Source: Candidatus Borrarchaeum weybense (GTDB lineage: Archaea > Asgardarchaeota > Sifarchaeia > Borrarchaeales > Borrarchaeaceae). From it: a stretch of DNA of 64,000 nucleotides. The stretch covers positions 1 to 64,000 of the forward strand of contig JAHQJS010000003.1 of assembly GCA_019057385.1 (NCBI GenBank), read 5' to 3'. The translations under genes and the position numbers were made by a program. Below, in pieces: positions 33,926 through 36,654 of the stretch. Position 1 is the stretch's first letter. Each line of letters starts with the position of its first letter. The notes beneath the pieces were generated by a model that was not told the DNA's origin, made no database searches, and was given only the letters and a program-made list of their open reading frames with translations.

Positions 33926-35041
33926 CTATACCTTTTTCAGCAGATTCATCAACACTCTTGGAATTTCGGAGTGTGAATGAACTTTTGCATAACGTCCTTT
34001 TCCAAATCTTGCCAGATCTTTACATATATGTTCTCCTTTTTTTCTGGCAGAGTTTTGGGAAGGCGACTGGATGACATGAAGTTTTTGGAAACTACGGGCA
34101 AATGGTCTGGGATCTCCTCCTTTATTGTATTCTCCGTCCGTTACAATAATGCCCCATTTTCGTGGATTCTGCCTTTTTTTCTCTAATTCTTTTAGTCCTT
34201 CTTTTAAAGCTGCTTCTATATTGGTGTATCCAGCGGGTTCCATGTCAAGAATTCCTTCAATCAACTCGGAAATTTCAGTATTCGCATCTATTTTTTTGAT
34301 AGTATTTGCGTCATTATTGAAAATAATCACTGAATATTCATCCTTATGCATATGATGCGACAGTACTGCGACTGTAAGACACGCGTTTACCAGCTTTTCA
34401 CCATACATCGACCCTGAGGTATCTAACATCAACACGCCTGTCTTTTTTCGTTCGGTTTTTTCTATGCCTACGATGTCGCTATATTTAAGATGTTCTGAAT
34501 TCTGTTCCAAGAAGCGATCAATAGTTTCTTCCACAGAGAACTCAGACATTCCAGGCACATATATAGTATCCCTCTTTAGATCGCCTCTTAATCCCCGCCC
34601 ACTTATCCGCATAGCGGATTTTATGATAAAATTTCGCGTTAATCTCCGAAAAATCGGGAGATATCCTTGAGAAAATGACTTCTTAAGGAGAAAGAATAAC
34701 TCGGGAATGGCTTCTGAACTCTTCTGAATATTATTGGAAAATAATTCAACACCATCTTTAGAAGATAATGTATCAGCTACAGCTCGTTGACTGCACATTG
34801 AGAGCCCTAGAAGAGCAGAAAGATTCTCATTTTGAATGGCAGTTTCAGCAAGTCGAGAGATCGTGCTATAGGGAAGACCTTCTGCCAACTGAGAATAAGA
34901 TTTTGGAGATTTTTTGGATCCGGCTGCAATTTCAGATTCTAAGATATCTTCTTTTGAGAAATTCCATGATGGAGAAAATTCTTTTTGTGATACATCATCA
35001 AGGACATCTGGTTGAAATGAAAATGTCCTCTCCTGTTCTAA
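33926..35041 (-). CDS. VWA domain protein (probably the C-terminal part of a frameshifted MoxR-VWA fusion)
   Basis: MIDAS DTSGSM...GYTN...VTDG; frame is open for 51 codons upstream of the first TTG (34888) and overlaps the MoxR stop. Confidence 0.85.
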   Translation of the reverse strand, partial: LEQERTFSFQPDVLDDVSQKEFSPSWNFSKEDILESEIAAGSKKSPKSYSQLAEGLPYSTISRLAETAIQNENLSALLGLSMCSQRAVADTLSSKDGVELFSNNIQKSSEAIPELFFLLKKSFSQGYLPIFRRLTRNFIIKSAMRISGRGLRGDLKRDTIYVPGMSEFSVEETIDRFLEQNSEHLKYSDIVGIEKTERKKTGVLMLDTSGSMYGEKLVNACLTVAVLSHHMHKDEYSVIIFNNDANTIKKIDANTEISELIEGILDMEPAGYTNIEAALKEGLKELEKKRQNPRKWGIIVTDGEYNKGGDPRPFARSFQKLHVIQSPSQNSARKKGEHICKDLARFGKGRYAKVHSHSEIPRVLMNLLKKV

Positions 35042-35047
35042 AAATCC
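35000..35047 (-). promoter_or_regulatory. Candidate -1 ribosomal frameshift signal (G_GAU_UUU heptamer + UAG + 10-bp hairpin)
   Basis: GGG GAT TTT TAG at the MoxR end; stem GAGGACATTT/AGATGTCCTT starting 10 nt downstream. Confidence 0.6.
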
Positions 35048-35886
35048 CCCAATACATATCCTACGATTTCTCGTATAACATCTTCAACCGATTTCTCTAA
35101 TCCATCCTCAAGTTCGATCTTGGTTGCCAACGCCATAATTGCGCTGCTTACCCAATCTTCATACGTTGGGGAGTCATAAAATCGAATAATGTTTGCGAGA
35201 TCAATAGCACCTCTAACTGAGGACCCTCGTCGAAGGTCAGCATAACCTCTTGTAGTACGCACAATTGCGACTACTTTTTTGATGGTATCTTCATCTTCAC
35301 ATTGGGATTGGAGTTTCACAATTCGTCTTTCTTCCTCTTCATCTTGGAAATCTAATTTGACCCATACAAATCGGTCTCTTAGAGCTTCACAAAGAGAAGT
35401 TGTGCCAATAAATTCTTCAGGATTTTGAGTAGCAATTATCTGAAAACCGTTTTCTCCTGTAACTGTTCCAAGTTTGGGAATAATGATTTGCCGTTCATCA
35501 AGAGCAGGTAAAAGCACGTTTTGCGTGCCCTCTGGAAGTCTATTAGCCTCATTAATAAATAAAATTGCGCCAGCCTGCATAGCTTCAGTTAAAGGACCAG
35601 GCACAAAAGAATTCCACGTCCATCCTTCTTTAACAACTAATGGAGGGTCGAATATACCAGTCAATTTCGTTTCTGTAAAACGTTCGTCACCATCGACCCT
35701 CAGGAAGTCTTTGTTAAAATGTGATGCCACAGCTTTTGCTAAAGTTGTTTTTCCAACTCCAACTGACCCTTCAATAAGAGCATGTTGTCCAGCAAGATGA
35801 GCTATGACCACTTTCTTGAGTTCATGCTCTCTTCCAACGATATCATAATTGGTTTGGATCTCTTGGGCTATTTCGTTAACATTCAT
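35038..35886 (-). CDS. MoxR-family AAA+ ATPase
   Basis: Walker A GSVGVGKT, FVPGPL, Walker B LFINEANR, ATQNP, ALRDRF, SVRGAID. Confidence 0.92.
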   Translation of the reverse strand: MNVNEIAQEIQTNYDIVGREHELKKVVIAHLAGQHALIEGSVGVGKTTLAKAVASHFNKDFLRVDGDERFTETKLTGIFDPPLVVKEGWTWNSFVPGPLTEAMQAGAILFINEANRLPEGTQNVLLPALDERQIIIPKLGTVTGENGFQIIATQNPEEFIGTTSLCEALRDRFVWVKLDFQDEEEERRIVKLQSQCEDEDTIKKVVAIVRTTRGYADLRRGSSVRGAIDLANIIRFYDSPTYEDWVSSAIMALATKIELEDGLEKSVEDVIREIVGYVLGDF

Positions 35887-36111: not shown

Positions 36112-36642
36112 CTAAGAAGCTGAAGTACCATTCTCAATTGTGCGTCTTAATTTCAGCAGTTTTTCCTCAAGTGTCGATACTATTTGTTCGTTTTGTTGAT
36201 GGTTTAGCACTCCACCACAAGTTGGACATTTAAATGAATTTTCTACAGCTTGATTGAATGTACAGCGAGGGCAAGTTGGTGTCGAGCATTCAAAAAACAT
36301 GTTCATTTGCTCGTATGAGAGCCGATCTTCAAGTATTTTTAGCACTTGTCTCTTTCGTTTCAGTAACAGTTCTTTTACGCGGTCAGGAACCAATTTCCAA
36401 TAATATACGAACCATCCAGTATTCTGATCTCGCGTTCTCCTATACGCAGCTAACTGATTATCATACAATTTATAGAGGATTTTCCTTACAACGTTTAATC
36501 TGAGTTCAGTTTCTGAAGCAATTTCTTCATCTGTTATTTCTTGTTCTTCAGATAAGATCTCAATTATCTGGAGTGCGTCATTGCCTCCGATCTCTTCTAC
36601 GAAGGTATTAAGTATATCTTGGTGCTTTGTCTCTTGCTGGAT
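36112..36642 (-). CDS. tfe: Transcription factor E alpha subunit (non-canonical start, probably ATC at 36642)
   Basis: ITDEEIA..TELRLNVVRKILYKLYD...R.RD..TGWFVYYW and Zn ribbon C..C...CPTCG; the winged-helix N-half lies upstream of the first TTG. Confidence 0.9.
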   Translation of the reverse strand: MQQETKHQDILNTFVEEIGGNDALQIIEILSEEQEITDEEIASETELRLNVVRKILYKLYDNQLAAYRRTRDQNTGWFVYYWKLVPDRVKELLLKRKRQVLKILEDRLSYEQMNMFFECSTPTCPRCTFNQAVENSFKCPTCGGVLNHQQNEQIVSTLEEKLLKLRRTIENGTSAS

Positions 36643-36654
36643 CTTCGATTCCTC

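Follow-up and report, generated by a model that had tools for sequence, protein, structure and literature searches.

The window analysed here is the whole stretch of 64,000 nucleotides (nt) at positions 1 to 64,000, forward strand, of contig JAHQJS010000003.1, from assembly GCA_019057385.1 of the Asgard archaeon Candidatus Borrarchaeum weybense. On its minus strand lie two adjoining open reading frames (ORFs), the first for a MoxR-like AAA+ ATPase and the second for a protein with a VWA domain. The VWA ORF occupies the -1 frame relative to the ATPase and is open from position 35083, ahead of the ATPase stop codon. We examine the junction between these two ORFs as a candidate site of -1 ribosomal frameshifting, which would join the two halves into a single protein (Table 1).

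The ATPase ORF ends in GGG GAT TTT TAG, and the T-run at the junction comprises five T. An earlier sequence-only reading of the window had reported an in-phase heptamer G_GAU_UUU right before the stop, a -1 VWA frame with no ATG, GTG or TTG for 51 codons, and a stem of 10 base pairs (bp) beginning 10 nt downstream, and the sequence, the ORF translation and the minimum-free-energy fold, respectively, agree with it on these points. Across the ATPase stop region the -1 frame translates as ...GGFLEQERTFSFQPDVLDD..., and the first canonical start past the junction is the TTG at 34888, 51 codons beyond the shift point (LEQERTFSFQPDVLDD...). The predicted trans-frame product has 653 amino acids (aa). 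The locus is the extreme of its genome: among 148 ORF pairs, each an ORF of at least 200 codons with a -1-frame continuation of 200 or more open codons across its stop, the first start lies 51 codons away here, 44, 31 and 30 codons away in the next pairs, and 0-15 codons away in most. Four other -1 continuations in the same genome (G000), at C4:1109403 (+), C4:815359 (+), C6:866605 (-) and C4:867939 (-), have start-less stretches of 44, 31, 30 and 25 codons. The last of them has a U-run at its stop as well, and all four are possible candidates for recoding or for a misplaced start.

Table 1. Features of the ATPase-VWA locus, in positions of the window.
Feature	Position	Strand	Basis
Zero-frame ORF: MoxR-like AAA+ ATPase, 282 aa, AAA_5 family	35038..35886	(-)	ORF list and Pfam
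Walker A P-loop GSVGVGKT	35746..35769	(-)	Kept in 69-71 of 71 sequences with the residue (73 aligned, 2 gapped)
Walker B ILFINE; Asn for the usual Asp, catalytic Glu retained	35548..35565	(-)	Alignment
Candidate shift site G_GAU_UUU, in phase; a tRNA-Phe moved back by one base can pair with UUU again	35041..35047	(-)	Sequence
Zero-frame stop UAG, directly 3' of the shift site; ends the 282-aa product, possible pause element	35038..35040	(-)	Sequence
Hairpin, 10-bp stem and 11-nt loop, beginning 10 nt past the shift site; candidate frameshift stimulator	35000..35030	(-)	Folding
Start-less -1-frame segment, 51 codons: acidic disordered linker of about 29 aa and first two helices of the N-terminal domain	34889..35041	(-)	Translation, AlphaFold
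TTG, first canonical start in the VWA frame; annotated start of a 320-aa ORF	34886..34888	(-)	Translation
All-helical N-terminal domain of the VWA protein, from ...ILESEI...	34601..34954	(-)	AlphaFold helices H30-H147, pLDDT about 90
VWA/MIDAS domain; stop codon at 33926-33928	33929..34582	(-)	Pfam VWA_2 and VWA
MIDAS motif DTSGS (DxSxS)	34409..34423	(-)	Alignment

The arrangement recurs throughout the phylum. A VWA profile search over 400 of its genomes found the family in 258, and 84 loci were fetched, of which 73 non-redundant ones were analysed. In 56 of these, from 18 families whose proteins share about 40% identity, the VWA frame is -1 and open across the ATPase stop, and all 56 carry an in-phase NNU_UUY, which lies directly before the stop codon in 22 loci, one codon before it in 32, and two and five codons before it in one locus each. 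The heptamer itself varies, being GGAUUUU in 19 loci, AAAUUUU in nine, UUUUUUC in eight, AGAUUUU in seven and other sequences in the remainder. Thus, the overlap and the in-phase slip site on which the sequence-only reading relied are shared by every -1 locus of this set. A further -1 locus (L041, genome G148, family f25) has no U-run; it carries a canonical A_AAC_CCU directly before a UGA stop, together with TTG, TTG and GTG starts within 23 nt, and may be in transition between recoding and separate genes.

This recurrence bears directly on whether the change of frame could be an artefact, either an indel introduced into the G5 or T5 run by assembly or the mark of a recently broken fusion that has become a pseudogene. 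Homopolymers do flank the junction, and in-frame fused relatives exist, but the same -1 relation is found in 56 independently assembled genomes from 18 families with differing junction nucleotides, and both halves as well as the linker are under purifying selection. In addition, Logan's independent assembly of the probable source run is identical at the junction, at a depth of about 31 and with no indel; the junction sequence is confirmed by that run only, and contigs X4 and X6 of two independent studies do not cover 35036-35180. Assembly error is excluded, and the explanation as a whole, decay included, has a negligible probability.

The segment between the ATPase stop and the first start in the VWA frame behaves as protein-coding sequence. 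Within the 24 codons past the ATPase stop, the 56 loci together hold no stop codon in the -1 frame, 39 in frame 0 and 162 in frame +1. In 22 of them, representing six families, the first ATG, GTG or TTG is at least 30 codons beyond the stop, with distances that reach +245 nt in L016, +269 nt in L015 and +605 nt, or about 200 codons, in L065, and such distant starts fall inside or past conserved protein sequence. The ratio of nonsynonymous to synonymous substitution rates (dN/dS) in the stop-to-first-start segment, computed for close pairs with at least 45 codons, is 0.12-0.27, and 0.16-0.27 within genus, and a 6-nt indel found in the start-less segment within the window's genus preserves the frame. 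Collectively, these comparisons argue that the segment without a start codes for protein in the -1 frame and evolves under purifying selection, so that the linker proposed by the sequence-only reading stays coding in orthologues. In some lineages the two halves are fused in frame at the exact junction.

The structural model of the VWA protein is relevant to the position of its N-terminus. In the AlphaFold prediction, whose mean predicted local distance difference test score (pLDDT) is 86, a disordered linker of about 28 residues leads into an all-helical domain and then the VWA fold; residues 1-28 score below 60, whereas values exceed 90 from residue 30 onwards. The TTG at 34888 sits 21 codons inside these confidently folded helices, and it is already absent from the same-genus locus L003, which answers the earlier reading's question of whether orthologues start there. 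It is thus probably not the true N-terminus. Database entries of the VWA family begin at inconsistent points, giving lengths of 297-367 aa.

Downstream of the shift site, the minimum-free-energy fold pairs positions 35030-35021 with 35009-35000 (GAGGACAUUU/AGAUGUCCUU), including two G.U pairs. Most lineages have a hairpin that starts about 10 nt after the UUY codon, and its sequence differs between lineages (for example GGACAU, GGAGG, GGGAAUUC, CGCACGGCC). In an alignment of 23 orthologues, which were picked because they aligned well (a choice that favours the result) and which are related and so not independent, compensatory changes are found in all five basal base pairs, double changes number 33 against 9.4 expected, and 96.5% of the cells are paired, compared with 78.8% in shuffles (none of 500 as high) and at most 71% in slid controls. 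Across the unselected 56 loci, the segment after the site is more stable than other segments of the same genes in 17 of 18 families, with a mean z of -1.49 across families (t-test, p = 3.6e-6). In family f10, nucleotides 4-19 past the site are nearly invariant, synonymous positions included, while upstream third positions vary freely. Next to the hairpin we also observed a conserved pentamer, GAUGA, which in the window (35003-34999, minus strand) comes right after the 3' arm; it is identical in 22 of the 23 orthologues, always with GAU and never GAC, codes for the Asp-Asp/Glu of an S/P-D-D/E linker motif, and in family f10 precedes the hairpin instead.

On this comparative evidence, we put at roughly three in four the probability that the ATPase and VWA genes are one recoded gene whose two products are made through a -1 ribosomal frameshift. 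In the mechanism that we propose, most ribosomes would end at the UAG and release the free 282-aa ATPase. Some would slip back one base with tRNA-Phe on the UUU of the heptamer, probably helped by the slow adjacent stop codon and by the hairpin 10 nt downstream, and would go on in the -1 frame through the acidic disordered linker, the helical domain and the VWA domain with its metal ion-dependent adhesion site (MIDAS), to yield the 653-aa ATPase-linker-VWA fusion. The AAA+ module being common to the fusion and the free protein, both should be able to join one ring, which would tether a limited number of VWA adaptors to the hexamer; NorD, which sits on NorQ, and ChlD, which works with ChlI, provide an analogy for a VWA adaptor on an AAA+ ring. 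The sequence-only reading had arrived at the same pair of products by a -1 shift, an interpretation that the comparative data support. It had also called the fusion the minor product, which, like any ratio of the two, is conjecture. Likewise, we infer the shift on the ribosome, its efficiency, the co-assembly of the products and the cellular substrate; among the listed public runs that contain the stretch, none is on record as RNA.

Several observations weigh against this reading, and the first of them concern how the slip would take place. A canonical X_XXY_YYZ site is present at only 25 of the 56 loci, and GGAUUUU is not one, since GAU cannot re-pair as GGA; tRNA-Phe would therefore be just as likely to slip by itself on U_UUU, next to the stop, as in a tandem slip. 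For a slip in the A site the 10-nt spacer is long, though it fits one in the P site. A P-site slip of tRNA-Phe with a slow A site fits both this spacer and the stop or sense codon directly after UUU, and a tandem slip is also possible. Moreover, the hairpin of the window is unremarkable when taken alone (z = -1.24, with 26 of 200 shuffles folding as well), and its weight comes from its conservation in relatives and not from the window fold.

The remaining points on this side are those that favour two ordinary genes, with the VWA protein initiated separately from a non-canonical start, by re-initiation after the ATPase stop or at the TTG at 34888, and with the overlap serving translational coupling only. 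A canonical start lies within 30 nt of the stop in 10 of the 56 loci (TTG in four, an ATG overlapping a UGA stop in one), and families f23 and f17 have a +1 VWA frame whose ATG comes 10-13 nt past the stop. In view of these near-stop starts and +1 arrangements, some lineages appear able to live with a VWA protein that is translated separately. A Met seven residues before the folded domain also recurs in many members of f5, f14, f19, f20 and f23 and could be an internal start there. Finally, a purine-rich, GGAGG-like tract follows the stop. We considered this tract as a Shine-Dalgarno sequence for a hidden start and rejected it, as the window offers no near-cognate -1-frame codon suitably spaced after the GGAG; the tract is, moreover, the 5' arm of the covarying hairpin. 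The ATG within the conserved GAUGA is unsuited as a hidden start because it belongs to frame 0, where a stop usually follows within 24 codons, and a start at the TTG would cost two confident helices besides lacking conservation within the genus. Separate initiation cannot serve the 22 loci that lack a canonical start for at least 30 codons and whose protein is conserved upstream of the first start, and it accounts neither for a -1 frame open across the stop at every one of the 56 loci nor for the constant presence of an in-phase U-run there. While it is possible in the lineages with a near start (10 of the 56 loci), where it may coexist with frameshifting, we judge it an unlikely account of the locus.

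The fusion could also be encoded at the level of the transcript, if the polymerase stuttered on the T-run and produced some mRNAs with one U fewer (or two more) that encode the fusion in frame. The site is indeed a homopolymer, reaching 6-8 T in 15 of the 56 loci, and in the reporters of the frameshifted chlD gene longer A-runs gave more efficient shifting (PMC3711429), a dependence common to both mechanisms. In the other 41 loci, however, the run is only 3-5 T, and it is five in the window. Polymerase slippage is known to need runs of about 7-9 nt or more. In addition, the constant spacing of a covarying hairpin downstream and the stop codon next to the site are typical of ribosomal frameshifting and not of polymerase slippage, and we hold slippage during transcription to be very improbable here.

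The two halves of the predicted fusion resemble known protein classes. The ATPase, whose sequence is also the N-terminal module of the fusion, scores 81 bits with AAA_5 and 64 bits with AAA_3 in Pfam, both above the cut-offs, and its closest solved single-domain structures in a PDB search are MoxR (2r44), CbbQ (5c3c) and NorQ (9qh4). The sensor-1 Asn and the DR motif are kept in the family alignment. From its sequence, the upstream protein is probably a MoxR-class AAA+ ATPase, within AAA_5 and similar to NorQ and CbbQ. Its Walker B motif reads hhhhNE, not hhhhDE, with Asn in 70 of 72 aligned family members and Glu in all 72; given this distribution, the Asn is a family trait and not a local mutation.

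In the VWA half, the MIDAS motif is complete, with its D, S and S invariant in all 73 aligned sequences, the T of GYTNI present in 71 and the D of TDG in all 73, and the ILE.EI block of the helical domain is conserved across families. In Foldseek, the VWA protein is closest to NorD as bound to the NorQ ring in the NorQD complex (9qhd_G, probability 1.0), at 13-16% identity and with modest template modelling (TM) scores of 0.41 by query and 0.56 by target. The database entries that match best come under the names Lokiarchaeota, Heimdallarchaeota, Thorarchaeota and other Asgard groups.

Relatives in which the same two halves are encoded in one frame bear on the predicted product. The trans-frame product aligns with the in-frame 712-aa orthologue of family f31 as one segment, over residues 2-642, at 40% identity (E = 6e-157), and it also aligns as one segment with an in-frame 636-aa paralogue of the same genome. 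Family f31 corresponds to the Njordarchaeales, as its locus L079 is at zero branch length from the named entry and has the same junction sequence. More widely, 215 proteins of at least 495 aa match the ATPase at E <= 1e-30; among the 120 matches listed, all have AAA-family Pfam hits and nearly all have VWA, and the groups named are Bathyarchaeota/Bathyarchaeia, Nitrososphaerales/Nitrososphaeria, Methanomethylicia, Njordarchaeales and Promethearchaeota. Whatever the arrangement, the two halves meet at one and the same point of the protein, following a (D/N/T)F(F) motif. These comparisons point to the ATPase-VWA fusion as a natural protein. The window's genome itself holds three in-frame AAA_5-VWA fusion paralogues of 636-659 aa, at C6:248722-250455 (+), C4:651208-652866 (+) and C4:491771-490035 (-), the ATPase parts of which are 36-41% identical to that of the recoded gene.

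Trees built without the junction columns place the -1 state deep in the Asgard clade, where it predominates, with the in-frame and +1 states nested within and a sister clade that is in frame. The trees were rooted at the midpoint or on paralogues, so the polarity is itself deduced from that rooting. The likely history is that an in-frame fusion became recoded at the base of the Asgard archaea, followed by at least two later reversions to an in-frame gene.

The lineages with the VWA in the +1 frame comprise family f23 (11 loci, L021-L031), f17 (L077) and a paralogue in f18 (L080, L082). In these loci UUU UUU CGN stands in the ATPase frame, 2-9 codons ahead of the stop. The f23 loci invariably have CGG as the CGN codon, although no Arg codon is rarer in the f23 genes (19 of 483), and their pattern of codon variability changes over from frame 0 to frame +1 right at the T-run, before the ATG at +10/+13 is reached. 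In L080 the first start codon comes only at +193. A reasonable reading is that tRNA-Phe may slip by +1, from UUU to UUC, before the CGN Arg codon in all three lineages. Nearby TTG or ATG starts are an alternative to a +1 shift, including, in f23, a TTG 20-23 nt before the stop. It is tempting to go further and hypothesize that a single domain junction is decoded in various ways, mostly by -1 slippage on U_UUU, by +1 slippage in three lineages and with no shift in the Njordarchaeales and one other in-frame group, although we regard this as a tentative idea that is more doubtful than probable. If true, the family would have orthologues that switched the direction of frameshifting while keeping the two-product output, and the shift efficiency would set the number of VWA adaptors tethered per AAA+ hexamer.

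In the flanks of about 1.5 kb around the orthologous loci, no neighbour gene is common beyond the family level. The ATPase-VWA pair is therefore a self-contained unit, and we rejected a conserved neighbourhood as a clue to function. The neighbours in the window are genes for the alpha subunit of transcription factor E (TFE-alpha), tRNA methyltransferases, Ras-like GTPases and thioredoxins. At the first of these genes, the TFIIE-alpha (TFE) domain match (36115-36654, minus strand) begins upstream of the first canonical start of the gene, the TTG at 36468.

The closest precedent for the predicted recoding is the frameshifted chlD gene ('magnesium/cobalt chelatase'), in which a -1 shift joins a ChlI-like AAA+ half to a VWA half in genes of bacteria and methanogens, with an efficiency of 10-63% in Escherichia coli reporters (PMC3711429; PMC9227772), the only setting in which it was tested (Antonov et al. 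2013, PMC3711429). Kuznetsov et al. 2022 (PMC9227772) cites Antonov 2020 on this gene. As in chlD, a case found among bacteria as well as archaea, the AAA+ domain would be extended at its end by a -1 shift into a linker and a C-terminal VWA domain, giving a short ATPase and a long ATPase-VWA protein from one gene, the two parts are annotated as adjacent genes, and in-frame fused relatives exist. The chlD product is, however, a ChlI-type ATPase working with CobN/ChlH, and its slip site is a run of 7-11 A, in contrast to the short U-run beside a stop codon and hairpin described here. Membership in chlD itself can be rejected: Mg_chelatase (PF01078) reaches 27 bits over residues 15-55 only (41 residues), compared with 81 bits for AAA_5, the best match, and TIGR02031 gives 30.6 bits against a cut-off of 499.55. 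CobN/ChlH (PF02514) was not found in the window's genome, which is 100% complete by marker genes, and five control genomes did score. Of the ChlD-like architecture claimed in the sequence-only reading, the AAA+, acidic linker and VWA layout thus stands, being colinear with the in-frame fusions, while a chelatase identity does not.

By family, the ATPase is nearer to those of the NorQ-NorD and CbbQ-CbbO systems (48.8 bits for CbbQ 5c3c, 47.3 bits for NorQ 9qh4), although its Walker B motif has NE where the NorQ/CbbQ type has DE. These systems consist of two separately translated proteins with no recoding described, whereas the Asgard pair is predicted to be recoded, and there is no nor or Rubisco gene context around the window locus or in the flanks of about 1.5 kb of its orthologues. 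The predicted fusion also recalls Midasin (Rea1/Mdn1), with AAA_5 modules, an acidic linker and a C-terminal MIDAS. A special kinship was rejected, as the E value of 1.8e-37 of its match in the PDB search sums six AAA modules and the best single module, at 39.8 bits, falls below the 56 bits of MoxR 2r44; the ATPase described here has one AAA module, compared with six in tandem in Midasin.

With respect to the signal, umbraviruses and dianthoviruses shift at GGAUUUU too, pea enation mosaic virus 2 (PEMV2) being one example (PMC4737148). The identical heptamer is present in the window and is the one found at 19 of the 56 loci, likewise with a downstream hairpin, but the viral sites act on eukaryotic ribosomes, in viral RNA and with long-range RNA interactions, so that the likeness is one of signal only. 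Among archaea, the alpha-L-fucosidase gene fucA1 of Saccharolobus solfataricus uses a programmed -1 frameshift, for which slippage in the P site only has been considered too (PMC1616953; PMC8211752), and a 2021 review names it as the only reported case of -1 programmed frameshifting in Archaea (PMC8211752). It belongs to an unrelated gene family, has an A-rich heptamer and concerns a single species, in contrast to the phylum-wide distribution described here.

A full-text literature search found no publication linking the AAA_5-VWA family with frameshifting. While the kind of recoding is already known from frameshifted chlD, the present case involves a different AAA family (AAA_5, NorQ/NorD-like), a different signal and an Asgard-wide spread. 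Asgard archaea are the closest known relatives of eukaryotes, and the locus provides a phylum-wide, deeply conserved candidate for -1 frameshifting in these organisms, with a simple signal made of a U-run, a stop codon and a hairpin, for which the natural in-frame and +1 variants could act as controls in testing frameshifting by archaeal ribosomes. There are also consequences for annotation, as the Asgard entries named 'VWA domain-containing protein', in their hundreds, begin at arbitrary codons within the reading frame and the product of about 650 aa is missing from databases. Taken together, the parallels with chlD suggest, by analogy, that MoxR-VWA machines may, like Mg-chelatase, set the ratio of ATPase to adaptor through recoding.

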